64,000 nucleotides of DNA from a virus (IMGVR_UViG_3300033121_001507:4038-68037); one strand, 5' to 3'; shown: positions 18,206-54,832, numbered from the stretch's first letter. The notes: generated by a model from the letters alone, not told the origin. Translations and numbers: made by a program.

Positions 18206-19986
18206 ACCTACTGGATTTAGCTGAAGCTCCGGATCGCGCAAATATCTCTTGGAGGCCACAACCCCTAGAGCCTATTCCGTCAGGTGTAAAGACGATCTAC
18301 CTTGACACGGAAACGACAGGCTTAAAGTGGAGTCAAGGGCATAGGCCGATTGGAGCGTCCTTATACTGGCGTGGAATGCAAGGTCGTTACATACCTTGGG
18401 GACATCGAGCAGGTGGCAATCTCCCCGAGGAGCAAGTCAAGAGATGGATGCAGCAGGAACTTCGTGGAAAGAGAATCGTTAACATCAACACACGATTCGA
18501 TATCCACATGCTTAGAGAATGGGGAGTCGATCTTCGTAAGCAGAACAACACTGTTCACGACGTGGCGCACTACGCAGCGTTGCTGGACGATTCTCGTAAG
18601 CGGTTTTCCCTTGAGATACTTGGGCAAGACTACCTCGGGATGGGGAAGATCAAGGGGCTTGACAAGACCCGAATGGCTCTTTATCATGCTTCCGAGGTAA
18701 GTGACTATGCTGTAAGGGATGTCACCCTTGTAGCAGACCTCGACGATTTGTTTCGCAAGAAGATGATCGCTGAAGACCTTGAGAGAGTTGCTGCTCTCGA
18801 GGACAAGCTGATCTATACTGTGTGTTCGATGGAAGCCCGTGGTGCGTTGCTCGACTTGGAGCTCCTCGATCGTTGGATTCGCGAAACAGAAGTTATCGTC
18901 AATTCATCGATTAGGACTGTATCTCAGGAATGGGGCTTTCAATTCAGCCCAACTAAGACGCAGGATTGGGTGAGGGTGTTTAGGAAGTACAACCTCCCAA
19001 TCATCAACTTCACGGATAAAGGGGAACCAAGCTTCACCGACGATGTTCTAAAGAAGCATAAGGACAATCCCTTCATTGAACTAGCACGTAAGGCAAAGAA
19101 ACTGATGAGCCTTCGCTCTAAGTTTCTATTGGCTTATCGTAATGCCGTGGAAGAGGGAGGAATCCTTCGCTACTCTTTGAACCAGTTACGAGCAGATGAT
19201 AAAGGCACCGTAAGTGGCAGATTCTCAGCCACGGATGAAAACATCCAACAAGTAGCTGCTCCTAAGAAGCAGAAGGCAGCTTTGGACATGGATGATTTCA
19301 TCATTCGAAAGCTGTTCATTGCCCCAAAGAGAAGGCTGTTCTTCTGCTCAGACGCGATGCAGATTGAGTATCGGCTGTTTGCTGATTATGCTCGTAACAA
19401 GCGAGTATTGGCTGCTTACGCCGAGAATCCCCTAATGAGTTTTCATGTCATTGTGCATGATGACCTCAAGACATATCTTCCTGAATTACCTTACAGCCGA
19501 GCAAAGGATTGCAACTTTGCGAAGCTCTATGGTGCTGGAAAAGACAAGCTCGCTGCGATGCTTGCACTACCCTTAGAAGAAGCAGAGAAGGTTCTACAGA
19601 TCTATGACACGCGGTTCCCCGAAGTCAAGATCATGCTCAGGAAGGCTTCTCAGCTTGCTAAGAACCGCGGGTATGTTCACACACTCCTCGGGAGGAGAGC
19701 ACGCTTCACTGGAGAACAAGGGGTCCATAAGGCATTGAATCGCGTGATTCAGGGAACCGCGGCGGATATCATGAAGACGAAGCTCATCGAACTTGATGAG
19801 ACCTCTCCTGAAACCGGATTGGAGCTTGCTTGGACGGTTCACGACGAGGCAGACGGGTATGTTCCCGACGAAGAATCGGCTCGTAAGGTAGCAGATGTTC
19901 TTAACCGACAGTCCTTTCCTAACTTGAAGGTTCCAATCCTTTGGGAAACCGGAACGGGCGCTAATTGGGCGGAGGCTAAAGACTAA
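18202..19986 (+). CDS. polA: family A DNA polymerase with 3'-5' exonuclease
   Basis: ExoI DTETTGL; GTVSGRFS; motif A DAMQIEYR; motif B RAKDCNFAKLYG; motif C VHDE. Confidence 0.93.
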   Translation: MNLLDLAEAPDRANISWRPQPLEPIPSGVKTIYLDTETTGLKWSQGHRPIGASLYWRGMQGRYIPWGHRAGGNLPEEQVKRWMQQELRGKRIVNINTRFDIHMLREWGVDLRKQNNTVHDVAHYAALLDDSRKRFSLEILGQDYLGMGKIKGLDKTRMALYHASEVSDYAVRDVTLVADLDDLFRKKMIAEDLERVAALEDKLIYTVCSMEARGALLDLELLDRWIRETEVIVNSSIRTVSQEWGFQFSPTKTQDWVRVFRKYNLPIINFTDKGEPSFTDDVLKKHKDNPFIELARKAKKLMSLRSKFLLAYRNAVEEGGILRYSLNQLRADDKGTVSGRFSATDENIQQVAAPKKQKAALDMDDFIIRKLFIAPKRRLFFCSDAMQIEYRLFADYARNKRVLAAYAENPLMSFHVIVHDDLKTYLPELPYSRAKDCNFAKLYGAGKDKLAAMLALPLEEAEKVLQIYDTRFPEVKIMLRKASQLAKNRGYVHTLLGRRARFTGEQGVHKALNRVIQGTAADIMKTKLIELDETSPETGLELAWTVHDEADGYVPDEESARKVADVLNRQSFPNLKVPILWETGTGANWAEAKD

Positions 19987-20899: not shown

Positions 20900-21293
20900 A
20901 ACCATTGTCAAGTCTCGTCTCATGGAACGCTTTCACTCCATGGCGGGAATTACAGCACAGCGGCATGAGGATAAACTCAGTTCAGGAGTTCCTGACATCT
21001 CCATTTCTCATCTTCAGAGAACCCTGTGGATTGAAGTGAAACTGGATAAAGGCAAAGGGTATGTGGAACGAGACGTTCAGGTAGCACATATTCTTCGTCT
21101 TGAACAGACAGGAATGGCTGTATATGCAATCTTCGACGCTGTAAAGAACACCATCACGGTTATCATGCCGTCAGCTAAACGTGATGGAAAACCCGGCATC
21201 ACCCTTCCGTGGGATTACTCACGAGCAGCCTTCTTGCTAGTGAAGATCATCTACGACACAGTTAAGGGAGGCATGTATGCCTATCCGCTCTGA
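20886..21293 (+). CDS. PD-(D/E)xK nuclease (VRR-NUC/Holliday junction resolvase-like)
   Basis: NE, GVPDI, WIEVK motifs. Confidence 0.8.
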   Translation: MALNETIVKSRLMERFHSMAGITAQRHEDKLSSGVPDISISHLQRTLWIEVKLDKGKGYVERDVQVAHILRLEQTGMAVYAIFDAVKNTITVIMPSAKRDGKPGITLPWDYSRAAFLLVKIIYDTVKGGMYAYPL

Positions 21294-21693
21294 TAGAAGT
21301 ATTCATGTTGGATTTCACACGACACCCGGTGTCGCCGAAGCCTTGTTTCATGAAGCGAAGAAGCAAGGGCTGTCGAAGTCCAATCTAATCCATCAAATCC
21401 TCGAGGATGAACTCATCTCTCGCCGAGGATATACCGTAGTCCCCTTCATCGATCCGCGCCTCGTTCCACTTCCGTTTGATCAGGAGAATGACAATGCCAA
21501 AGCTTGCGAAAGTTTCTCGGACCCTTCGTCGGAAGATCATCGAGAGAGCAATGAATCAGTGGGAGAAACGGTGTCAGGAGAAGGGGGATCAGATCTATCA
21601 TTCTCGTCACGAGGGGATCGGAGTGCTGGAGGAGGAGCTACTGGAGTTGAAGGAAGCGATCCGGAAGAAGGGGACGGAGGAGATGGAAGCTGA
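21277..21693 (+). CDS. ribbon-helix-helix-like DNA-binding protein; the C-terminal half overlaps the next gene
   Basis: IHVGFHTTPGVAEALFHEAKKQGLSKSNLIHQILED. Confidence 0.55.
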   Translation: MPIRSDRSIHVGFHTTPGVAEALFHEAKKQGLSKSNLIHQILEDELISRRGYTVVPFIDPRLVPLPFDQENDNAKACESFSDPSSEDHRESNESVGETVSGEGGSDLSFSSRGDRSAGGGATGVEGSDPEEGDGGDGS

Positions 21694-21763
21694 GGCGATG
21701 GATTGTATCGTTCCGTTGCTTCACCTGCTGGCCTCTATTGATACTGGAGGTATGAAGTGGTGA
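21488..21763 (+). CDS. MazG-like all-alpha NTP pyrophosphohydrolase
   Basis: SRHEGIGVLEEELLELKEAI...EAMD acidic motif; AGGAG RBS. Confidence 0.7.
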   Translation: MTMPKLAKVSRTLRRKIIERAMNQWEKRCQEKGDQIYHSRHEGIGVLEEELLELKEAIRKKGTEEMEAEAMDCIVPLLHLLASIDTGGMKW

Positions 21764-22374
21764 TCCCATTGAGGGGTGGACTTGCAATTTTCGACATGGA
21801 TGGGGTTATTGTGGATAGTATGCCCATTCTGACAGAAAACGCAATCAGCCTCATTCAAGCATACTTCGAGGTAGACTACAAACAAGCGGAAAAGGCGTAT
21901 CTGTCCTCGGTTGGCAGACCATTCTCTTTCCAGCTTAAAGAAGCCTTTCCAGGACACCCCAACCTGGAGAGAGCTATCGATAGCTATGAAACCTTGCATG
22001 AGCAAAGGGCTCATTCATTTCCAGTAGGCCGCAATACCCAATACTTGCTGGAAATTCTTAAGAGGCAGCACTACAAAACTGCCCTTGTGAGTAGCACCCG
22101 CCGTGAATTGATTCAGCGGCACATGCCACAGGTGATGGCACTCCCCTTCGACTTCATTGAAGGACAGAAGGATGGGTTTAACAAGAGGGATCAGGTGGAG
22201 TATGTAATCGCAGAGGCAGCTATCCCAGAATCTCTAGTGTGGATGTTTGGGGATACTCACCACGACGAACGGGTTGCTTTCTTTGCTGGAATCAACTTTA
22301 GAATGATCTCTCATCCAACATCCCTTTACCTGGAGGTATCAAGTGCCCTTGAACTCGACTTCTACGATAAATGA
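21757..22374 (+). CDS. HAD-family phosphatase
   Basis: FDMDGVIVDS, VSS, K, GDTHHD. Confidence 0.88.
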   Translation: MVIPLRGGLAIFDMDGVIVDSMPILTENAISLIQAYFEVDYKQAEKAYLSSVGRPFSFQLKEAFPGHPNLERAIDSYETLHEQRAHSFPVGRNTQYLLEILKRQHYKTALVSSTRRELIQRHMPQVMALPFDFIEGQKDGFNKRDQVEYVIAEAAIPESLVWMFGDTHHDERVAFFAGINFRMISHPTSLYLEVSSALELDFYDK

Positions 22375-23332
22375 AGCTAATCTGGATTTGTTCCATCAGT
22401 TCTGCCTTGCAGAGACTTCAACTGGTGGACCAGATCCTCAAATGGCAACGATCACCCAAATTGCTAAGGATAGCACTCCTGTTGAACAGGTTTGGTTGGC
22501 AGGTTGCTATGGGGCACATCACTGTATTCCATCTGCTGTTGCAGTATGGAATCGGTTTCGTCCTGAACAAATACTCAGTTCCAAGGGTCACAAGGAGCTG
22601 TGTGATTGGCTTCATTACTACTGGAAAGCTCTGCCAGTACGCCCTGAGATGAGGTCACATCGAATGATTGAGAAGCGTGCGGAATGCTTGAGTGATTTCG
22701 CACTGTACTCCTATAAAGAAATTTGGAAGCGAGGTAACACCTACCAGCAAGTCTGGGAAACTTCGATTGATAGTGTGGCTTACTATAATCGCTACATGGC
22801 AATCAAGTTTCTTGAGATGCTGAGACAGTCAGTGAGGCCTGACATTGTTCTTAAGGATCTGAGATCCAAGGGCGCGTGGTCTCCTCGGCGCACGATTGCT
22901 ATGATCTTCACAGATCATGCCAATGTGCTGTGTGACAAGGAAGACAATCGCAAGGAGACTCTTGCCCTCACAGAACGCCTTGGTGAAGAACTCTTGTGGT
23001 TGCTTGGAGATCGTGGTCTTCACATCTCTCACTTTCAGCTTCAGGTGATGCTTTGTGAATTCCGCGAGGCCACCGTCGGAGGTTACTATCCTGGTGCATC
23101 TCTCGATGAAGAGCTCGGCTATCTCACCATCATGGCAGACAACTTGAATGAACTGAGCTATAAGGATGAATGGCTCTTTAGTGAGGTAGCCACAAAAATC
23201 TACAATGCTCGGCAGGATCTGTTTCCCCATCAATATCTTGGAGAAATCAAAGGATGGATGGGGTTGCGTAAGGAATGCTTCCGCGAATTCAAAGGAGTAG
23301 CATCATGGCAAGACTTTCTGAAAACCGTGTAG
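22343..23332 (+). CDS. putative amino acid:DNA transferase (aGPT-Pplase2/ADDT-like)
   Basis: RPEMRSHR, HhH-like RYMAIKFLEML, MLCEFR...GGYYPG; context in the hmdU cluster; clade uncertain. Confidence 0.65.
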   Translation: MPLNSTSTINEANLDLFHQFCLAETSTGGPDPQMATITQIAKDSTPVEQVWLAGCYGAHHCIPSAVAVWNRFRPEQILSSKGHKELCDWLHYYWKALPVRPEMRSHRMIEKRAECLSDFALYSYKEIWKRGNTYQQVWETSIDSVAYYNRYMAIKFLEMLRQSVRPDIVLKDLRSKGAWSPRRTIAMIFTDHANVLCDKEDNRKETLALTERLGEELLWLLGDRGLHISHFQLQVMLCEFREATVGGYYPGASLDEELGYLTIMADNLNELSYKDEWLFSEVATKIYNARQDLFPHQYLGEIKGWMGLRKECFREFKGVASWQDFLKTV

Positions 23333-24093
23333 ATGATGTGGTTCGTAGGCAGGTGGTTCTGACCATCCCTACCAAAAGGAAACCTCCAGTATTGTCACTG
23401 GAGAGCTATGCTATCCCCGATGGATTGAGTTGTTTGATTATTGCTGATCCCTCCGTTCTTGAGGAGCATGTAACCTATTACAAAGATCAGCAGAGCATTC
23501 GAGTGGTATTGGGGGAAGTTGGGATGGCGGCACAGTGCGCCATGTGCTACATCTGGGCGGACTACTTCAACTTCCCTTACTACTTCCGCATTGATGATGA
23601 CCTCGCTCCAAAGACCTTTGTTCACAAAGAGGGATACTATCCCAACCTTGCTGAAGTCATCACCGAGGCTGAATCTTGTGCCCACGAGTGTAAGGTGTCG
23701 ATGGTTGGCTTTGCGAATACAAGCAACCGATTTTGGCTGAATGAAGGGTTCGGCAGAACCTGGGGTCTTGTCCACGGAGGAGGATTCCTCTGCATGAGTT
23801 CTCCGGATCCCTCGGAGTTTATCGACACAACTCTTGTGAGGGGAACAGATGTCTACATGACCTGTGCTCACCGTAAGAGGGATGGGGCTGTTGGTCGTGT
23901 TCGGTTCATCGGATTCGACAAGAAAAGTTCAACTGTTACGGCAGGGCAGACATCAATCAACGTGACTCAAGAACAGATTGATGCTTCCCGTGATAAGATT
24001 CTGGAGAAATTCCCAGGAATGGTCACGTGCAACGGGACTCGTAAGATCAACGGTGGTAAACACACAATCGCAAACTGGAGGATGAAGCGATGA
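23305..24093 (+). CDS. GT-A glycosyltransferase, TET/JBP-associated (TAGT/GREB1-like) type
   Basis: LTIPTKR, YFRIDDDL, GTDVYMTC; AAGGAG RBS. Confidence 0.68.
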   Translation: MARLSENRVDDVVRRQVVLTIPTKRKPPVLSLESYAIPDGLSCLIIADPSVLEEHVTYYKDQQSIRVVLGEVGMAAQCAMCYIWADYFNFPYYFRIDDDLAPKTFVHKEGYYPNLAEVITEAESCAHECKVSMVGFANTSNRFWLNEGFGRTWGLVHGGGFLCMSSPDPSEFIDTTLVRGTDVYMTCAHRKRDGAVGRVRFIGFDKKSSTVTAGQTSINVTQEQIDASRDKILEKFPGMVTCNGTRKINGGKHTIANWRMKR

Positions 24094-24689
24094 CTCCTTA
24101 TATGCTTACACACTCAGGGCGTAAGTTGGATTTGATAGATCCCGACTTGGCAGATATCCACATCAACGATATTGCTCATGGTCTTTCTCAGGTGAATCGT
24201 TTTTGTGGACAGACGGAAGAGCCAATCTCCGTGGCGCAACACTCAGTTCTCGTTGCTCGCTTGTGTGAACCATGTGGGCATAAGATCATTCTTCAAGCAC
24301 TTCTTCATGATGCGTCGGAGGCATACCTTGGGGATGTAACGAAATGGTTGAAAGAGGATCCTATCATGCGAGAATATCGTATCGCAGAACGGATCCTTCA
24401 AGGAGTGATCTACGATAAATTCAAGATAGATCCAGTTCTCGCGCGAGAAGTGAAAGAAGCTGATAAGTTGGCAGTTCGTTACGAAGCCGAACTGGGATAT
24501 AAAGACAAGTGGATGCCTCCGGAAGGATATCCTCTGTTGTCCAGAGAGGAAAAACTTCGTATTCGTGAAGTAGTAGGACTTCCCGAGTTCTGGAGTCCGC
24601 ACCGGTCTAAAGCTACTTTCCTGCAATACTGGGAAAAAGTTACAAACTACCCGGATTTGTTCCCTGACAGGCGTGGCTTTACAAACTAA
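24090..24689 (+). CDS. HD-domain 5'-deoxynucleotidase (YfbR/DatZ-like)
   Basis: IAHGLS..NRFCG, SVAQHS, LLHDASEAYLGD, EAD. Confidence 0.88.
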   Translation: MTPYMLTHSGRKLDLIDPDLADIHINDIAHGLSQVNRFCGQTEEPISVAQHSVLVARLCEPCGHKIILQALLHDASEAYLGDVTKWLKEDPIMREYRIAERILQGVIYDKFKIDPVLAREVKEADKLAVRYEAELGYKDKWMPPEGYPLLSREEKLRIREVVGLPEFWSPHRSKATFLQYWEKVTNYPDLFPDRRGFTN

Positions 24690-24706
24690 CCCGGTTGTGC
24701 TATACT
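24678..24706 (+). promoter_or_regulatory. sigma70-like promoter for the kinase-AADT-hydroxymethylase unit
   Basis: TTTACA-N17-TATACT with a TG extension. Confidence 0.78.
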
Positions 24707-24722
24707 GTATGTAGGGGGATCA

Positions 24723-25745
24723 ATGACAGCATCACGTCCAGCAGCGGTGAACATCCGAGGAACCAGTGGATCGGGAAAAAGCTATGCGATCCACCAGTTG
24801 ATCAAACTCTACCCTACAGTGGAAAAGGTTAACGTAAAGTGGAGGGATCAGCCAATCGGCTATCTGTGTTCCGCTCCAACTCTGCGACCTCTTTACATTG
24901 TTGGGCACTACGAAACAACCTGTGGAGGTTGTGACACTCTTGACTCAATCGATCAGGCTTACAAATATATCAATCAGCACATCGATGAGGGGCACCATGT
25001 TGTCTACGAGGGACTCGTGGTGCAAAGTGATGTCAATCGGTGCATTGAGCTTGGTAAGAAAGCTGATCGATCAGTAGTGTTCCTGTCAACACCAATCAGC
25101 ATTTGCTTGAATGATGTTGCCACCAGGAGAGATGAAAAGGGAAAAACATCCGTGTTCAACCCAAGGAACACGGTTATTAAGCATCAGTCATTCCCTCCTC
25201 AGAAAAGGAAGTTTGAGCGAGAGAAGGTTCCTTTCTACGAGTATGACCGGCAGCAAACCCTCCAATACTTGAAATTGAGTTTTGGTTTGGATTATAACCC
25301 GGTTCCTCCGGCTTATGTCTATCCGGAACTTACTGATTACTTCCATAATCAGATCATTCCTGTTTGGGTCAAGGCACTGATTGAAGTGGCCGCAGAAGGT
25401 TCACTCCAGGAAAGAGAAGTTCTGGCCATGAGGTTTAAGAGCACTATCAAGGATGTGCTTAAACAGCCCCACGACTTTAGCCTTGGTATTCTTCGCCAAC
25501 TCTACGAGAAGTATCCTGTCTATCAGGATAATCGCACAGTGATTGGATATACCCCAACGAACCTGCCCGGCCTTATGGGTGGAATCCGGGATGCTGCATG
25601 GCAGAAACGCCGCGAAGCTATGCGCGAAGGATACATCCAGAACACCGTACGAGCAGCCCGTGTCATGTGGGCGGATTGGGCCTACAGCAAAGCAATTGAT
25701 GCTGAAATCCACAACATCCTCAACATCATTGACGGAGCACTCTGA
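24723..25745 (+). CDS. P-loop 5-hmdU DNA kinase-like protein with a C-terminal domain of unknown function
   Basis: NIRGTSGSGKS, QPIGY, VGHYETTCGGCDT, VYEGL. Confidence 0.78.
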   Translation: MTASRPAAVNIRGTSGSGKSYAIHQLIKLYPTVEKVNVKWRDQPIGYLCSAPTLRPLYIVGHYETTCGGCDTLDSIDQAYKYINQHIDEGHHVVYEGLVVQSDVNRCIELGKKADRSVVFLSTPISICLNDVATRRDEKGKTSVFNPRNTVIKHQSFPPQKRKFEREKVPFYEYDRQQTLQYLKLSFGLDYNPVPPAYVYPELTDYFHNQIIPVWVKALIEVAAEGSLQEREVLAMRFKSTIKDVLKQPHDFSLGILRQLYEKYPVYQDNRTVIGYTPTNLPGLMGGIRDAAWQKRREAMREGYIQNTVRAARVMWADWAYSKAIDAEIHNILNIIDGAL

Positions 25746-26647
25746 TGCAGAACCTTGCTCACTACTTCAGCACAGCACAAGAGCGGTATAAGATCAAGTT
25801 GCGCCGCTTTGAAGATAAGAATCCTCCTCCATGGACGAGTGATCCTGTCTTCAAGGAATGGAGTTTCTGCAACGTGTTCCGCGAAGACGACGTCACCACG
25901 AAGTGGTTTCGGGAGAATATCCGGGATCATACAAAAGGGCTTCATGCAATTCGGGCGACAGTTACCTTCCGCTGGTTCAATCGTATCTCCACTGGAGAGA
26001 TTCTTAAGGATATCATCCTCGAGGATCGTTGGGATGCACAGGAAGTCCTTCGACGTTTGAAGGCTTTGCCACCTGATCAGCCAGTCTTCACGGGTGCTTA
26101 CATGATCAAGTCCTTCAACGGAAAACCCAAGACTGAAAGCATCATTCAGAACGTGGATGATGCCCTGAGGATGCTTCCCGAGCTCACCAAATCGTGGGGA
26201 CGATCACTTGAAGAAGCCACGATGGATCTCACCACTATCCCCTTTTTGGGGCCGTTCATGGGCTACGAGGTAGTTACTGACCTTCGTCACACTGATGTTC
26301 TTTGTAATGCTCAGGATATCATGACATGGGCGAACACTGGTCCTGGGTGCAAGCATGGCCTCGGGAGAATTTTCAACGGAAATCCCCGTGCGTTCACTGA
26401 TCCAGGAGCCCTGTCGGCAAACGCTCGTGCCTTCAAGATGCTCATGATGATGCGTGACATCGTGGACGCAAGTAGAGATGAATCCTACTGGCCGCTTGAT
26501 TATCCCAAGTGGGAAATGCGTGAGGCGGAACACTGGGCTTGTGAATACGACAAGTATTGTCGTGGAGCTAGCGGCGAGAAGCTGAAAAGGCGTTTCGTCC
26601 CACAGTCGAAAGAGGACATCTACGAGGTGAATAATGCACGTCATTAA
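25745..26647 (+). CDS. amino acid:DNA transferase, aGPT-Pplase1-like
   Basis: WTSDPVF, FCNVFREDD, FRWFN, GAYMI, MGYEVVTDL, GPG, EHWACEYDKY. Confidence 0.85.
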   Translation: MQNLAHYFSTAQERYKIKLRRFEDKNPPPWTSDPVFKEWSFCNVFREDDVTTKWFRENIRDHTKGLHAIRATVTFRWFNRISTGEILKDIILEDRWDAQEVLRRLKALPPDQPVFTGAYMIKSFNGKPKTESIIQNVDDALRMLPELTKSWGRSLEEATMDLTTIPFLGPFMGYEVVTDLRHTDVLCNAQDIMTWANTGPGCKHGLGRIFNGNPRAFTDPGALSANARAFKMLMMMRDIVDASRDESYWPLDYPKWEMREAEHWACEYDKYCRGASGEKLKRRFVPQSKEDIYEVNNARH

Positions 26648-27662
26648 GGTAAGAAATCCCCATGAAGGGCTTTACTGTGGTCTGAGTTACCTCAAAGACC
26701 ATGGAGTTACAAGGGGTTCCCGCAACGGAACTGTTCTTGTAAGTCCTGTTCCGGTGACAACTGTGTACGAATTCCCTGATGAGAGGATGGTGTTCTGGCC
26801 ATTACGGGACGCTAACCCATTCTTGCACATCTATGAAGCCCTGTGGATGCTTGCAGGTCGTGAGGACATTCAGTTCCTTAAGTCCTATGCCAAGAACATC
26901 GCCAACTACAGTGACAACGGCGTGACTTTGCATGGAGCCTATGGATATCGGTGGAGAACCCACTTTGGATTCGATCAGCTCTCTGTAATTGTTGATCGTC
27001 TGTCCAAGGATCCAACAGATCGTCGATGTGTTCTTCAGATGTGGAGTGCAACTGATGATCTTGGAAAGGAAGGCAAGGACTTTCCATGCAACACGATGGC
27101 AACCTTCCAGGTTGACACAGAAGGTCGATTGAATCTGACAGTGTTCTGTCGATCTAATGATATCATCTGGGGAACCTATGGCGCGAACGCTGTTCATTTC
27201 AGTGTTCTGTTGAGCTACATGGCCTGTTTGTTGGGAATTCCGGTAGGCACGTATACGCAAGTGAGTGTAAACTATCATGCGTATTTTGATGTCTACGAGA
27301 AAACAGTTCCCTTGCTTGATGAAAAGGTCACACAACCTTATCGCAAAGATGTATTCCCAACGAAGTTTCCCACATGCTCCACGGAGTTTAACACAAGGCT
27401 GCAAGATCTCCTAACCACTGTTGATCTTGGGTTCCTTCCGAGCTTTACCCGTTATACCCCCGACGGGACAAACCCTTTCCTTGACTGTGCTTATCACATC
27501 TTGAGGGCTTACAATATCTCAAGATACAAAGGAGCTGACGGTAAACTTCAGTATGAAGATGCTATTGGCTATCTTTCCATTTACGCAGACTACTCTAACG
27601 ACATGGTGACTGCTGCCCGTGAATGGTTGGAGCGTAGAAGGATCAAGGCAAATGGAGATTAA
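26634..27662 (+). CDS. dUMP hydroxymethylase (thymidylate synthase superfamily)
   Basis: DFPCN catalytic Cys; RSNDIIWGTYGAN with the dUMP-type Asn; NYHAY; hypermodification context. Confidence 0.82.
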   Translation: MHVIKVRNPHEGLYCGLSYLKDHGVTRGSRNGTVLVSPVPVTTVYEFPDERMVFWPLRDANPFLHIYEALWMLAGREDIQFLKSYAKNIANYSDNGVTLHGAYGYRWRTHFGFDQLSVIVDRLSKDPTDRRCVLQMWSATDDLGKEGKDFPCNTMATFQVDTEGRLNLTVFCRSNDIIWGTYGANAVHFSVLLSYMACLLGIPVGTYTQVSVNYHAYFDVYEKTVPLLDEKVTQPYRKDVFPTKFPTCSTEFNTRLQDLLTTVDLGFLPSFTRYTPDGTNPFLDCAYHILRAYNISRYKGADGKLQYEDAIGYLSIYADYSNDMVTAAREWLERRRIKANGD

Positions 27663-28191
27663 ATCAAAGCGTGAGTTCTTCACCAAGTGGAATCAGCTTC
27701 TCCTTGGGAACAAACCCCGAACCTACTCTTCTTTCAAAGAAGCATTTCTGTCGGAATGGGGATACTTCTCATTGAGAGAAATCAAAGCAGGAGGAGGTGC
27801 TTTTCAAATCTACCACCGGGTAGAGCTGAAAGCAGCCTGTAGTGAGTGGGATTTCCTAGGGAGAAAATACAGCATCGAGGAGGTCGTTCCAGGTCATCTT
27901 GCTCTGCTTCAAGGCGAGGTAATGAGAGGAACTTCCGGTTGGGAAGGTTACATCGGAATGGCGCATGGACTTCTGATGCGCGAGTCTAAGGCGCAAGGAT
28001 ACATCAAATCAGCGCGTGGGTTGAAAGTGATCTTGGCCTGTAGGACCTACATGGATCCGTCTTCTTTCGATGACATGATGGATCTATTCGAGCTTTACCC
28101 TGATGCAGTCATCGAATTCACTACCTACAAGCAAGACGTAGGGATCATTCCAAACCGCAACACCATCTTCTGGGAAGTGAGAAACTACTAA
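27652..28191 (+). CDS. hypothetical protein, possibly ATP-grasp-like
   Basis: FSLRE, YSIEE, LQGEV, VIEFTTY, IFWEVRNY; coupled to the hydroxymethylase. Confidence 0.6.
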   Translation: MEIKSKREFFTKWNQLLLGNKPRTYSSFKEAFLSEWGYFSLREIKAGGGAFQIYHRVELKAACSEWDFLGRKYSIEEVVPGHLALLQGEVMRGTSGWEGYIGMAHGLLMRESKAQGYIKSARGLKVILACRTYMDPSSFDDMMDLFELYPDAVIEFTTYKQDVGIIPNRNTIFWEVRNY

Positions 28192-28973
28192 TGAGGCTGC
28201 ATGAGCTTCTGAGCTTGAAACGCCCCTTGGTGATTGTTGATTTTGAGACGACTGGAATCCACGTAAACTTTGATCGCATCGTGCAGATTGGTGTCGTCAA
28301 AGTGAAGCCTTCGGGGGAGGTTACTACCTGGAAAACTCTTGTAGACCCGCAGATTCCAATTCCGAAGGAAGCATCCGACGTACACCACATCACCAATGAA
28401 GTTGTGAAAGGACAGCCAACCTTTAGGGAGATTGCTCCTAAATTCCTTGCTGGAATCGACGGTTGTGATTTCTGTGGCTACAACCTAGCACGATTCGACT
28501 TGAAACTCCTGGAAGTAGAAGTCAAGCGGGTTGGGTTGGAAGTTCCTACGAGCTCGAAAGTCGTAGATGTGTTCCGCATCTACCAGAAGATTCGTCCACG
28601 CAATCTTTCCGAATGTTATCGTGATCTCACTGGAAAAGACTTTCCTGATGCACACGATGCCCTCGCGGATTGCAAGGTGACACTGGAGTGCTTGGAAACA
28701 ATCTTGACAAAGCACTCCGAAGCCTATCCTTTGAATACTGTGGATGAGATCCACAAGGACATCTTCGAAACTCCCCCTCCGGGGGCATTGGATCCGGACA
28801 GCAGGATCATTTGGCGGAATGATCAGGCTATCATGAATTTTGGAGATCACTCCGGAAAACTCCTCAGTATGGTTCCAAAGAGCTACTGGTCCTTCATACT
28901 GAAGGCTAACTTCAACCCAACAGTGAAAGAAATCGCGAGGAACGCGATTAATGGAGTGTATCCCCGGAAATAA
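28191..28973 (+). CDS. DEDDh 3'-5' exonuclease (DnaQ-like)
   Basis: VDFETTG, GYNLARFD, AHDALAD; C-terminal FGDHSGK. Confidence 0.9.
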   Translation: MRLHELLSLKRPLVIVDFETTGIHVNFDRIVQIGVVKVKPSGEVTTWKTLVDPQIPIPKEASDVHHITNEVVKGQPTFREIAPKFLAGIDGCDFCGYNLARFDLKLLEVEVKRVGLEVPTSSKVVDVFRIYQKIRPRNLSECYRDLTGKDFPDAHDALADCKVTLECLETILTKHSEAYPLNTVDEIHKDIFETPPPGALDPDSRIIWRNDQAIMNFGDHSGKLLSMVPKSYWSFILKANFNPTVKEIARNAINGVYPRK

Positions 28974-29043
28974 AGTAGCACGCCGGAACGGGCCGTTACG
29001 TGCTATACTGTAAGTAGTAACACGGTAATCACACGAGGGTGTC

Positions 29044-51562: not shown

Positions 51563-51940
51563 TCATCCTCCTGCGTTCACACGGCGGAGAATTCGCCGGA
51601 GCATGTAAGGCTTTGACTCATTCAAAACAGACTCCAAGAACTTAGCTTGCCCGTGAGGATGATGAACTTCGAGATTCTCATGGACATACACCGCATAGTC
51701 CACTTCCTCGTTCCCAAACGTAATCGCCACAGCAATCCGTTTAGGATTTCTATCAACCACCACAACACGGCCAGACTTTTTCAGAGCCTTCGTATCCCAA
51801 GGAGTGCGCTTCTTCGCTTCTCGAAGTTCGATTCTAGCTTCTGCGACAATTGCCTTGACAACTTCCTTTGGGCGAGTCTTCGCAACAGAACGAAGTCTAG
51901 CCGAAATAGAAGCGTCTGCAACAGTCCGCATAACCAGCAT
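51563..51940 (-). CDS. HK97 gp10-like neck protein
   Basis: TPWDTKALKKSG, YAVYVHE, GQAKFLE. Confidence 0.8.
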   Translation of the reverse strand: MLVMRTVADASISARLRSVAKTRPKEVVKAIVAEARIELREAKKRTPWDTKALKKSGRVVVVDRNPKRIAVAITFGNEEVDYAVYVHENLEVHHPHGQAKFLESVLNESKPYMLRRILRRVNAGG

Positions 51941-53079
51941 TACAGATCTCCAAGAACATCCAAATACCTACGACCGATGTTTCTCCAGTTGTAGGCTGGA
52001 GAGGACGCGCATTCCAAGGCTTTGTTTGCGTAGTTTTTCAGACAGTCGGGACGCTCATACGCAAAGTTCAAAAAGCGAATAGCTTGCTCTTTATTTGGAA
52101 GACCACCGATTGCATTGATTCCGTTAGGGGTGCAAGCAAAATGGTCACAATCCACAGAAAAAGCATGCTCAGAAAACAGATCTCCAAGAGCAGCCCACTT
52201 AGGAAGAATCTGAGGAACACCACAAGCCATTCCTTCCAGTGTCGTAAGACCAAACCCTTCCCCCTGAGTGGTAGTCATCATCACATCGAAAGCGTTATAC
52301 GTGTGGCGGAGATGCTCCTCGGGAGCACCACTTCCAAGAGGAGGAATACACTGGATGAGCCTCTTCTGAAGCCCATAATACTTCATCAGCTGAGGAATAT
52401 CACAGGACTCTTCCCCGGTTGGTGAAGCATGGAGATAGAGATAGGCGTCCCTCACAGGTGACGTAGACTTTACCCATTCGGCAAAATACATCACCATCAG
52501 ATCAAGGCGCTTTCTCGGCTGATTGCGATTGATGTTCCCTACAATGAACTTGTCGTGAAGTTTCTCTGGAAGCCCCAACATCTGACGTGCTGCGATTCTA
52601 TCCTCGGGGTAGTAGATACTACGATCCACTCCGAGAGGAATCACGGCTGCTGGTTTGGTGTATCCACCCTCTCGTGCTTCATTACGACCGAATTCTGTCC
52701 AGAAGATGGCCAGATCGAGCTCGTTAAGAGCCGTGCCCCGGCAGTTCTTACCATCAACAGCCACGATCCCCACAACCTTAGTATCGGTTCCACGAACAAC
52801 CTTGTTGAGATACTCAGGAAAGTTCCAGGGATCGTTCTGAATGACGATTACGTCGTATTCCTTGGATTTGGTGAAATCCGTAACACGGTTCACCCCAAAC
52901 AGATCTCCACCGGGCCAGCAAGGATAGATCTTGTAAGGATAATCATGTGGATCCCCTTGGTAGTTCAACCCAAGAACATCCACTTCGTAGTGCTTGTGAA
53001 GAGTATCAAGGATGTAATGGGTTGCACGAGCGAACCCACTTGATACTACTGCGTCTCCGATCCAAAGCATTTTCCTCAT
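51940..53079 (-). CDS. GT-B glycosyltransferase (GT4-like)
   Basis: SGFAR, NRNQPRKR, EGFGLTTLEGMACGVP. Confidence 0.9.
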   Translation of the reverse strand: MRKMLWIGDAVVSSGFARATHYILDTLHKHYEVDVLGLNYQGDPHDYPYKIYPCWPGGDLFGVNRVTDFTKSKEYDVIVIQNDPWNFPEYLNKVVRGTDTKVVGIVAVDGKNCRGTALNELDLAIFWTEFGRNEAREGGYTKPAAVIPLGVDRSIYYPEDRIAARQMLGLPEKLHDKFIVGNINRNQPRKRLDLMVMYFAEWVKSTSPVRDAYLYLHASPTGEESCDIPQLMKYYGLQKRLIQCIPPLGSGAPEEHLRHTYNAFDVMMTTTQGEGFGLTTLEGMACGVPQILPKWAALGDLFSEHAFSVDCDHFACTPNGINAIGGLPNKEQAIRFLNFAYERPDCLKNYANKALECASSPAYNWRNIGRRYLDVLGDL

Positions 53080-53088
53080 ACAGGCTCC

Positions 53089-53772
53089 TTATGGATGGTA
53101 TACACGCTGGTGGGAATCAAGCCACAGCGAGAAACCATGTTCTCTGATGCTTTTTCCAAGCCCCCTTACACAGTCCAATGGACCGAAACGAGCAACACGG
53201 GCCACCCGATTGCTCATGACAATGCAAGAACCGGCCGAATCAAGAGTAACAAACCTTTCACCGTTCAGAGCAGGGTGATAAGGCCGGTATGGATCAAACT
53301 GAACACCGTCTTTAACGTGACCCCAGATGTCATAGAAACGATTGCTTGGTGTCATGCTCATTGGAGCTACAGCATCCAAGCCACGTTCCAGAACATCTTC
53401 GAGAAGCTCAATCATCGTAGCAGCAGACCAAACGAGATCCGACTCTACGTAGATGAAAGCATCTTCGTCTGTCACCTGAGTAATTGTACCGTTAGAGCAC
53501 CAAGACAGAGCTTTCCATCGCTCAGGGACATCTACACTCCCCCAAGCAGGACCACCATGCTGTCTCTTGATGAGTTTGCCATCGAAGTCTCCGTCGATGA
53601 AATACTTAGCAAGAGAATTCCAGGTGTTGTCCGAGCTATCCCCTTCTACGAGGTAGAGGGAAAGCCCAATGCCTTTAGGATCGAAAACACTCCTCATCTC
53701 CTCAATCTGCGTGAAATACCGATCGAGGTAGGACGTAGAGTTTCTAAAGATGCTTCCAACAGCGATTCTCAT
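53089..53772 (-). CDS. GT-A glycosyltransferase
   Basis: VGSIFRN, EGDSSDNT, YVESDLVW, SAGSCIVM. Confidence 0.75.
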   Translation of the reverse strand: MRIAVGSIFRNSTSYLDRYFTQIEEMRSVFDPKGIGLSLYLVEGDSSDNTWNSLAKYFIDGDFDGKLIKRQHGGPAWGSVDVPERWKALSWCSNGTITQVTDEDAFIYVESDLVWSAATMIELLEDVLERGLDAVAPMSMTPSNRFYDIWGHVKDGVQFDPYRPYHPALNGERFVTLDSAGSCIVMSNRVARVARFGPLDCVRGLGKSIREHGFSLWLDSHQRVYHP

Positions 53773-54437
53773 TCGAACAACCTTGTCCAAATGACATAGG
53801 CTTCAAATGCGTTATAGAAGCTCATCGAAGACCTACCTGCTTTATAACTGATAGGAACTTCTTTGATCCTCAAGCCACGGTCTGCCGCAATCTTCAGAAT
53901 TTCGATCTGACGAGCATGCATCTTTGCTCTGTAATCGACACATGCGATATCCTGCAAAGCTTGTCGAGTATAGCATCGATACCCGCTTGTCCAATCGGTT
54001 CCAATGTGCCCAATCAAAGCACAGTTACAGAGATGAGCAGCCCATCTGCTGAGGGTCTTTCTCCAGGGTCTTCCCTCGTAGACTGATTCAGGAAGGAATC
54101 GGCTACCCACTACGAGGTCGGTAGTATCATCCATAGCATCAAGAATCGTTTTAAGATCCCTGACAGAATGAGACCCGCCAGCGTCAAGAGTAACCACTCT
54201 ATCAGCTCCCGAATCAAGAGCGAAACCCCAAGCAATAACCTGTCCGAGAGCGATACTGGCAATTCCAACATCGTAAGCTTCAGCTCCTGCTTCCTTAGCC
54301 TTGTAAAGAGTGTCATCGGAGCTACGTGCATCCGTTACTACGACCTTCTGGACAAGCCCAGAGTTCAACAGGTCTTTGACCAAACTGCCGATTGAAGATT
54401 CTTCATTACGAGTAGTAATGCAAGCCACGGTCTTCAT
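53769..54437 (-). CDS. GT2 glycosyltransferase (polyprenol-phosphate glycosyl synthase-like)
   Basis: TRNEESSI, DARSSDDT, LDAGGSH, LVVGSRF, DWTSGYRCY, EVPISY. Confidence 0.85.
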   Translation of the reverse strand: MKTVACITTRNEESSIGSLVKDLLNSGLVQKVVVTDARSSDDTLYKAKEAGAEAYDVGIASIALGQVIAWGFALDSGADRVVTLDAGGSHSVRDLKTILDAMDDTTDLVVGSRFLPESVYEGRPWRKTLSRWAAHLCNCALIGHIGTDWTSGYRCYTRQALQDIACVDYRAKMHARQIEILKIAADRGLRIKEVPISYKAGRSSMSFYNAFEAYVIWTRLFE

Positions 54438-54832
54438 CGGATGAACCACCCAAGGTTAACGGCGTAGTAGTAAGGATGATCCGTTGTCGGGTCACCCAAT
54501 CCATCAACACTCAAGATCGGACCAGTTGTGCCATCGGGAAGAACGAGTTTATCCCTTGTATCCAAAGGCTCAATTCTACCCGCCGCCCCATTTTCCTCGA
54601 ACGGTTCCAAAAAATAGATGATCGCTCTCACGAGCTGAAGTTGCCCACTACCACTTGGAAACTGCTTGGTCTTATACTCGACGATCGCTTTCCGTGTGAC
54701 AGCGGTCCCATAGGTCATCGCGCCTTCTACATCCGAGGAAACCCAAGGATAGTGAACAACATCACACTGAGCAGACTGTGTGAGTTTGTTCGCTACCTTT
54801 AGGCCCGTTTGGATGAGCTTAGCGATGTTCAT
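54434..54832 (-). CDS. head closure protein
   Basis: Synteny after the adaptor; beta-rich. Confidence 0.65.
   Translation of the reverse strand: MNIAKLIQTGLKVANKLTQSAQCDVVHYPWVSSDVEGAMTYGTAVTRKAIVEYKTKQFPSGSGQLQLVRAIIYFLEPFEENGAAGRIEPLDTRDKLVLPDGTTGPILSVDGLGDPTTDHPYYYAVNLGWFIR

Follow-up and report, generated by a model that had tools for sequence, protein, structure and literature searches.

The window analysed here, a stretch of 64,000 nucleotides, covers bases 4038–68037 of a 68,037-bp linear virus record (IMGVR_UViG_3300033121_001507) with an estimated completeness of 87%. Between positions 21488 and 28191, its + strand carries one co-directional run of closely spaced genes, several of which overlap at their ends (Table 1). 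These genes combine the known backbone of thymidine hypermodification through 5-hydroxymethyldeoxyuridine (hmdU) with a new set of partners, namely an atypical enzyme of the amino acid:DNA transferase (AADT) clade, a phosphatase, and a glycosyltransferase (GT) resembling the TAGT family. An initial annotation had read the run as an hmdU-based hypermodification cluster with a kinase, an AADT-superfamily gene and a TAGT-like GT-A glycosyltransferase. Homology and fold bear this out, and every gene that it named is present in this interval on the + strand. It had also recognised no pyridoxal phosphate (PLP; PALP) enzyme, radical SAM enzyme or GNAT acetyltransferase, which holds across the 68,037-bp record in searches whose positive controls worked. 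The tailoring enzymes of M6, ViI and PaMx11 are missing here, so the final base is expected to differ from those described, as that annotation had anticipated.

Table 1. Genes of the hypermodification cluster, in window coordinates
Predicted product	Position	Strand	Length, matches and features
MazG-like NTP pyrophosphohydrolase	21488–21763	+	91 aa; Pfam MazG E 0.0031, 18.2 bits, below cut-off
HAD-IA phosphatase	21757–22374	+	HAD_2 1.1e-17
Divergent AADT / aGPT-Pplase clade-2 superfamily enzyme, (Q)VxLC(E) type	22343–23332	+	329 aa; PF18724 sub-threshold
TAGT-like GT-A glycosyltransferase (GT)	23305–24093	+	262 aa; invariant DDD
HD-domain deoxyribonucleoside 5'-monophosphate phosphatase	24090–24689	+	phrog_318 1.6e-44
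P-loop 5-hmdU DNA kinase	24723–25745	+	340 aa; P-loop residues 1–184, orphan C-terminal extension 185–340
aGPT-Pplase clade 1 / 5-HMUDK helical domain protein	25745–26647	+	PF18723 (HMUDK_hel) 1.6e-39
Thymidylate-synthase-family enzyme, predicted dUMP hydroxymethylase	26634–27662	+	PF00303 4.2e-26; phrog_5131 5e-106
Conserved protein without assignment, after the thymidylate synthase homologue	27619–28191	+	~180–190 aa; homologues after the thymidylate synthase (TS) gene in relatives

Studies on the hypermodification systems of M6/YuA, ViI, PhiW-14 and SH-Ab 15599 established a common logic, in which hmdU is converted to 5-phosphomethyl-dU (5-PmdU) and the phosphate is displaced by a small nucleophile in a Cys-dependent reaction (PMC8989533, PMC13458397). 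M6/YuA uses Gly, followed by radical SAM and PLP enzymes, to make 5-NedU, and ViI uses Ser, followed by a PLP enzyme, to make 5-NeOmdU. The nucleophiles of PhiW-14 and 15599 are putrescine and diaminopropane, respectively. The window shares the path from hmdU through 5-PmdU to displacement, as read here from genes alone. Unlike these systems, it adds a phosphatase and a GT in a record without PLP, radical SAM or acetyltransferase genes. In the PaMx11 cluster, which makes 5-AcNmdU, gp46 (AADT/PUGT) is followed by gp47 (FAD lyase), gp48 (acetyltransferase), gp49 (kinase), gp50 (helical protein), gp51 (TS) and gp52 (HD). The window has instead the order AADT-like, GT, HD, kinase, helical protein and TS. 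Both clusters thus run from the transferase through a tailoring slot to the kinase, helical and TS genes, and the last three products are 41%, 43% and 46% identical, respectively. The two transferases have the same fold (Z 17.3) and the same catalytic Cys, but there is no detectable sequence similarity between them, and in the window enzyme ET is replaced by QV and K248 by E. In addition, the window differs from PaMx11 in the GT that fills the tailoring slot in place of the FAD lyase and acetyltransferase, in a coupled HAD gene, and in the orphan C-terminus of its kinase.

The AADT-like protein scores 21.2 bits against PF18724, below the curated cut-off of 26.2. We found 75 homologues, and 55 of the 71 that were scanned match this profile at E<0.01 (best 6e-11). 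The AF2 model of the protein (pLDDT 95) has the helical, HhH-glycosylase-like fold of PaMx11 gp46 and matches the gp46 crystal structure (8z2m) over 245 residues with Z 17.3 and rmsd 3.1 (VIA). The next structural matches are DNA glycosylases, at Z ≤10, and the top BFVD matches are AADT-domain proteins (TM 0.66–0.71). Residues were placed in register by a MAFFT alignment with YuA gp10, PaMx11 gp46, PhiW-14 gp109, the 15599 enzyme, ViI gp247 and two actinophage enzymes. An hhalign comparison of the family profile with gp46, whose statistics are non-significant, was used for the residue register alone and agreed with MAFFT. Both alignments place Cys238 on the catalytic Cys247 of gp46, and this Cys is invariant in 71/71 close homologues and in the best 145/145 sequences of the wider clade. 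The YuA pocket residues D24, E96, K159, Y257 and D262, whose roles follow published descriptions (PMC11472151, PMC13458397), correspond to D31, E102, K155, Y249 and E257. The last four of these are well conserved across the best 145 clade members.

Around the Cys, the protein departs from the characterised enzymes. The Glu-Thr pair located four and three residues before the Cys provides metal ligands, and the 15599 (PMC13458397), M6 and ViI enzymes lose their activity when it is mutated. This pair is kept in all seven (7/7) of the characterised or actinophage enzymes aligned and is replaced by Q234-V235 in the window protein. Within the close family (A2), Q234 is invariant and V235 nearly so, with Gly in P0109 and in 4/56 parsed members. 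A profile search of 1.84 billion representatives returned 679 AADT-clade relatives (clusters, E≤1e-3). Among the best 145 of these 679, the residue four before the Cys is E in 68, Q in 66 and A in 9, and 139 carry E, D or N directly behind the Cys. Known enzymes have Lys (glycine transferases), Gly (diamine transferases) or Trp (ViI) at the latter position, in contrast to the E or N of the window clade. Because E239 of the window protein replaces the carboxylate-binding K248 of gp46, glycine appears an unlikely donor. The nearest cultured-phage relatives by tblastn are the actinophage AADTs of Tonitrus and LittleMunchkin (E 1e-5 to 1e-4), and profile and sequence searches of the PDB with the family gave zero matches. 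Tonitrus and LittleMunchkin belong to ParB / T-dioxygenase / AADT / kinase systems (PMC13229309, PMC11955845) and share with the window an acidic residue after the Cys. They differ in keeping ETxLC, in deriving hmU from T oxidation, and in having no GT or HAD gene beside the AADT gene. The window gene thus falls into an extensive clade of its own within the AADT superfamily and is no canonical AADT.

Members of this clade lie next to phosphatases. In the window and in 6 other lineages, a HAD gene is located directly upstream of the AADT-like gene, with an overlap of 32 nt in the window. Its catalytic motifs, DxD and GDxxxD, are intact, and its nearest solved relatives, found as weak matches, are a phosphorylated-carbohydrate phosphatase and the mannitol-1-phosphate phosphatase MtlD. 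Other members of the clade carry a phosphatase of a different fold. Among the top matches, 14/16 of the AADT-clade proteins of ≥440 aa have a C-terminal dual-specificity phosphatase (DSP) domain, DSPc, and a DSP gene directly follows the AADT-like gene in all 15 distant loci (L025–L040) and in L013. AADT-like proteins fused to, or encoded directly before, a DSPc phosphatase include P0268, P0287, P0301, P0305, P0306, P0316 and P0388. No mention of an AADT–DSPc architecture was found in the literature searched. This constant pairing of the AADT clade with a phosphatase is a new observation; the partner in relatives is a DSP, either fused or adjacent, and in the window it is a HAD protein whose gene overlaps the AADT-like gene. 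Since two unrelated phosphatase folds occupy the same place, and fusions occur, we argue that dephosphorylation is part of the pathway of this clade. The initial annotation had counted the HAD protein among flanking nucleotidases; the comparative data instead link it to the AADT-like gene, and we propose that it acts as a pathway partner of the AADT-like enzyme rather than as a generic nucleotidase. Removal of the 5-PmdU phosphate by a tethered phosphatase would undo the work of the kinase, which favours action on a phosphorylated adduct or on the donor.

The GT gene begins, as had been predicted, at 23305, where an AAGGAG ribosome-binding site precedes the start, and it shares its first 28 nt with the AADT-like gene. 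Neither Pfam nor PHROG gave a match for the window protein, and it does not match the Pfam TAGT profile (PF20691) at E≤1. From a collection of 5.8 billion proteins we retrieved 40 homologues of 35–62% identity, none of them named, so that the family comprises 41 clusters including that of the window, all uncultured. D97-D98-D99 is invariant in all 41. The AF2 model (pLDDT 91.6) shows a GT-A fold, and Foldseek matches it in the PDB to RmlT, TarS, TarP, SpsA and GnT-I (E ~1e-6 to 1e-5). The best viral matches (BFVD, TM 0.6–0.69) are phage GTs, including several TET-associated glycosyltransferases and one beta-glucosyl-HMC alpha-glucosyltransferase. PF20691 is weakly matched by 20/41 family members (best 3.5e-5), and the similarity to the canonical TAGT of PhiJL001, gp22, is marginal (E 0.009; hhalign statistics non-significant). 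The GT is thus a divergent sister of TAGT. The earlier label "base-J-type" stands at the level of family and fold and not beyond it. A tblastn search of phage records with the GT returned zero matches, and PDB searches with its profile and sequence gave one chance match only (E 1.6). A 231-nt contig of one wastewater metatranscriptome is identical to 23518–23748 within the GT gene, which is too little to speak for habitat or expression.

TAGT family members such as JGT and the phage TET-associated GTs act on 5-hydroxymethylpyrimidines in DNA (PMC8256090). For the window GT, the constant hmdU-operon context points to a 5-hydroxymethylpyrimidine in DNA as a possible acceptor. Like the base J system (JBP1/2 hydroxylase and JGT) and the beta-glucosyl-HMC alpha-glucosyltransferase of T2/T6, the window has a GT-A/TAGT-type enzyme for placing a sugar on a DNA position derived from 5-hydroxymethylpyrimidine. 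It differs from base J in that its hmdU would be made before replication by a TS homologue, and in that the sugar may be placed on an adduct instead of on hmdU. The 68-kb record yielded no nucleotide-sugar genes (epimerase, NTP_transferase, GFO), so the sugar donor is expected to be a nucleotide sugar of the host. A complex prediction for the clade-1 protein and the GT scored 0.00, which counts neither for nor against binding.

Contigs fetched for homologues of the GT and of the AADT-like protein reveal a recurring cassette in uncultured phages. It consists of HAD, AADT-like, in some cases a second AADT-like, in some cases a tailoring enzyme, and GT genes, beside genes for HD, kinase, clade-1 protein and TS. 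The gene order of the window recurs exactly in L010. The AADT-like and GT genes are directly adjacent in the window, L005, L010 and L022. Elsewhere the slot between them holds a GFO_IDH_MocA oxidoreductase (L006, L008, L009, L017), a radical SAM-SPASM protein (L013, L023) or a DSP (L013). It is the counterpart of the PaMx11 tailoring slot, and the window GT itself occupies the gene slot of the PaMx11 and M6 tailoring enzymes. For about two thirds of the GT-family members found on contigs of ≥4 kb, an AADT-like member lies on a contig of the same length, and co-occurrence was directly verified in at least 8 loci. The AADT-like gene is linked to kinase and TS genes throughout the related loci, and in every relative the GT lies in an hmdU operon with overlapping genes. 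A tblastn search of phage records found the AADT-like and GT pair in no cultured phage. The second AADT-like copy in the large relatives L006–L008 has the pocket residues CN..Q and VAP, and once a NUMOD3 homing-endonuclease-like gene separates the copies. A 316-aa gene in L003, considered as a further AADT-like candidate, proved not to be AADT-like.

The kinase is identified by P-loop homology to characterised kinases and by a PF18723 helical partner in the next gene. Its Walker A motif is GTSGSGKS, its N-terminal part matches phrog_800, and its N-terminal 184 residues are 40.7% identical to PaMx11 gp49, which is listed as a 5-hmdU DNA kinase (PMC8989533). The C-terminal 156 residues (window 25275–25745) have no match in Pfam, in any of the loci, in the helical protein or in Atlas. 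Kinases of relatives are ~190 aa long, compared with 340 aa in the window, and L010 has, in place of the single orphan-tailed kinase of the window, two tandem P-loop kinase genes (10019–11028).

The TS homologue is 46% identical to PaMx11 gp51 and 44–46% identical to the corresponding proteins of PaMx11, Ab18-like phages and PhiJL001. It combines the TS fold with a visible catalytic Cys (PCN) and uracil-type Asn (GAN), and it falls far below every NCBIfam ThyA equivalog cut-off. It groups instead with the enzymes of hmdU phages, which make up all of its best phage matches (PaMx11/Ab18, M6/YuA-like, ViI-like and SPO1-like). Its product is predicted to be hydroxymethyl-dUMP rather than dTMP, given these relatives and the presence of an hmdU kinase. 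The HD phosphatase also matches Pfam HD_3 weakly and has homologues in nearly all related loci. The MazG-like protein, with a visible acidic EExxE...E..D helix pattern, is a candidate cleaner of the dTTP/dUTP pool; no homologue of it was found in the related loci. The last gene of the run encodes a protein with no assignment in Pfam, PHROG, NCBIfam or Atlas. Homologues of 36–45% identity lie directly after the TS gene in L003/L011 and L010, and the gene may be part of the hmdU supply module. Tet_JBP (PF12851) had no match in the 68-kb record, but the control genomes gave no match either.

We propose that these enzymes act in sequence, through phosphorylation, AADT-like substitution, dephosphorylation and glycosylation, to yield an undescribed glycosylated thymidine adduct. 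We give this reading a probability of roughly 0.42. In the first step, hmdU would be made before replication and then incorporated into DNA, where the kinase would turn it into 5-PmdU. Cys238 of the AADT-like enzyme would then attack C6, the phosphate would leave, and a small nucleophile would join the C5 methylene. The donor would not be glycine; a hydroxyl-bearing donor, perhaps phosphorylated, is possible. The partner phosphatase, HAD here and DSP in relatives, would strip the phosphate of the adduct or supply the donor. Finally, with a host nucleotide sugar as donor, the GT would glycosylate the exposed hydroxyl, so that the sugar is probably added last in the pathway. A more specific version, bold and rather improbable, is that the donor is both phosphorylated and hydroxyl-bearing (e.g. 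O-phosphoserine or a polyol or sugar phosphate), that the obligate phosphatase unmasks a DNA-bound hydroxyl, and that the GT O-glycosylates it. If true, the product would be a "glyco-amino-acid" or glyco-polyol thymidine, and the logic of activation, substitution and unmasking would be new for any DNA base.

Several points weigh against the sequential pathway. The order and chemistry proposed for it are read from gene content, fold and synteny, and the record in which the genes were sought is ~87% complete. Because of Q234-V235, the activity or mechanism of the AADT-like enzyme may differ from that of its relatives, and the guess at its donor is built on alignments of ~13–18% identity. The HAD protein could be an ordinary nucleotidase. 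Furthermore, GT genes of this family or of canonical TAGT occur with clade-1 and TS genes, but without a P-loop kinase or AADT-like gene, in the complete genome of PhiJL001, in the complete 64.3-kb contig behind L019, in L011/L012 and in L015, and the positive control for the absence of the AADT-like gene in kinase-free genomes scored 2.5e-108. PhiJL001, a phage of alphaproteobacteria (Keylargovirus) from the same Mesyanzhinovviridae-like phage family neighbourhood, has its clade-1 protein (gp19), TAGT (gp22), HD (gp23) and TS (gp24) genes in one operon, as in the window. It differs in lacking the kinase and AADT-like genes, and its gp22 is a canonical TAGT (2.7e-53). These clusters imply that a GT can act on a product other than that of an AADT, most simply hmdU.

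They also count in favour of parallel fates, in which the GT would glycosylate hmdU directly, in a base-J-like manner, and the kinase and AADT-like enzyme would make a separate, unglycosylated adduct, giving two thymine derivatives. The known action of the TAGT family on 5-hydroxymethylpyrimidines in DNA (PMC8256090) agrees with such a scheme, and in L015 and L019 the GT gene is followed by a sugar epimerase/dehydratase and a GT1 gene, as in glycan-building DNA pathways. We consider parallel fates a serious rival, though somewhat less probable than the sequential pathway. Under this scheme, the kinase and the GT would be competitors for one hydroxyl, and it leaves unexplained both the conserved order of AADT-like, tailoring enzyme and GT genes and the position of the GT in the tailoring slot. 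Moreover, L011 carries a canonical TAGT next to its GT of the window family, and the latter may act there in a second step.

The altered metal-ligand residues raise the question of whether the AADT-like protein is a group transferase at all. It might process 5-PmdU, bind DNA or be inactive, leaving the GT as the sole hypermodifier and the HAD, HD and MazG-like proteins as plain pool enzymes. Mutation of the Glu-Thr ligands, here Gln-Val, abolished the activity of the 15599 enzyme (PMC13458397), the window protein falls under the PF18724 cut-off, and the family profile matches no PDB sequence. We judge this unlikely: the Cys is present in 145/145 clade members, E102, K155, Y249 and E257 are well conserved, and the AADT-like gene is constantly linked to kinase and TS genes. 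In addition, the alternation of E and Q four residues before the Cys (68 versus 66) in an otherwise conserved clade suggests tolerance rather than decay.

In the initial annotation, the cluster held two amino acid:DNA transferases, the clade-1 protein and the divergent gene, which together could make two adducts plus a sugar. The clade-1 family (1607 homologues at E≤1e-20, some of them named clade 1 by JGI) has an invariant C266-E267 and, four residues before the Cys, an invariant E262, which recall the AADT active site and leave room for a catalytic role. In the large relatives L006–L008 (138–161 kb), the AADT-like gene is indeed present as two paralogues that differ in their pocket residues, but the window has one. 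Pfam, however, places clade 1 as the helical domain of 5-hmdU DNA kinase (PF18723), and it is fused to a P-loop domain in phrog_800-type proteins; only the gene at 22343–23332 is AADT-like. M6 lysates containing gp54 (kinase) and gp51 (clade 2) alone made N-alpha-GlyT, with gp52, gp53 and gp55 dispensable (PMC8989533). The literature consulted records no transferase activity for clade 1, which also occurs in the GT clusters that lack kinase and AADT genes. Two transferases in the window are thus very improbable. The clade-1 gene adjoins TAGT-type GT genes in genomes without a P-loop 5-HMUDK, namely L001 (PhiJL001 gp19–gp24), L011/L012, L015 and L019, and two of these genomes are complete. For clade 1, "kinase domain" may therefore be too narrow a name; on a side reading, the clade-1 aGPT-Pplase would be a general hmdU-presenting protein that serves kinases or GTs.

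Finally, that the GT acts off DNA, on a protein or cell-envelope polymer, is suggested by its best PDB matches, the wall-teichoic-acid GTs TarS and TarP and RmlT, and by the GT2 and GT4 genes among the virion genes of the phage, but we give this hardly any credence against its constant embedding among the overlapping genes of the hmdU operon in all relatives, its best viral structural matches to TET-associated and HMC glucosyltransferases, and the match of half of its family to Pfam TAGT. The GT4 gene (379 aa; Glyco_trans_1_4, PF20706 GT4-conflict) and the GT2 gene (226 aa) lie at 51940–54449 on the − strand among head-tail genes, on either side of a 233-aa gene without assignment. Their possible roles are the glycosylation of virion proteins or the extension of a DNA glycan begun by the GT of the operon.

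The operon is located between the gene for a family-A DNA polymerase (18154–19986) and those for an RNase_T-type exonuclease, an SbcC-like ATPase and an SNF2 helicase. Early and replication genes occupy the + strand from ~3.7 to 35.5 kb, and virion genes occupy the − strand beyond. Megablast of 21000–29000 against 50,697 phage records gave zero matches, and promoter and terminator scans yielded chance-level results only. At its upstream end, a 138-aa open reading frame (ORF; 21277–21693) and the MazG-like ORF overlap in different frames. Over its initial 67 residues, the 138-aa ORF resembles a 68-aa RHH (Antitox_RHH) gene of relatives. Its tail, of low-complexity Gly/Ser/Asp, overlaps the MazG-like ORF, so the true end of the RHH gene is uncertain.

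Thymidine hypermodifications, which shield the DNA of phages against restriction and other nucleases, are also a source of new DNA-modifying enzymes. To our knowledge, all characterised AADT pathways end in an amine-type side chain, and none has a glycosyltransferase or a dedicated phosphatase. Our analysis defines a branch of these systems by an AADT clade of 679 clusters (E≤1e-3), a GT family of 41 clusters (40 besides that of the window), altered metal and donor residues, and a constantly attached phosphatase. If the sequential pathway is confirmed, "flanking nucleotidases" in such clusters would be reassigned to pathway roles, and the branch would provide a new class of sugar-bearing thymine derivative together with new enzymes for site-directed DNA derivatisation.

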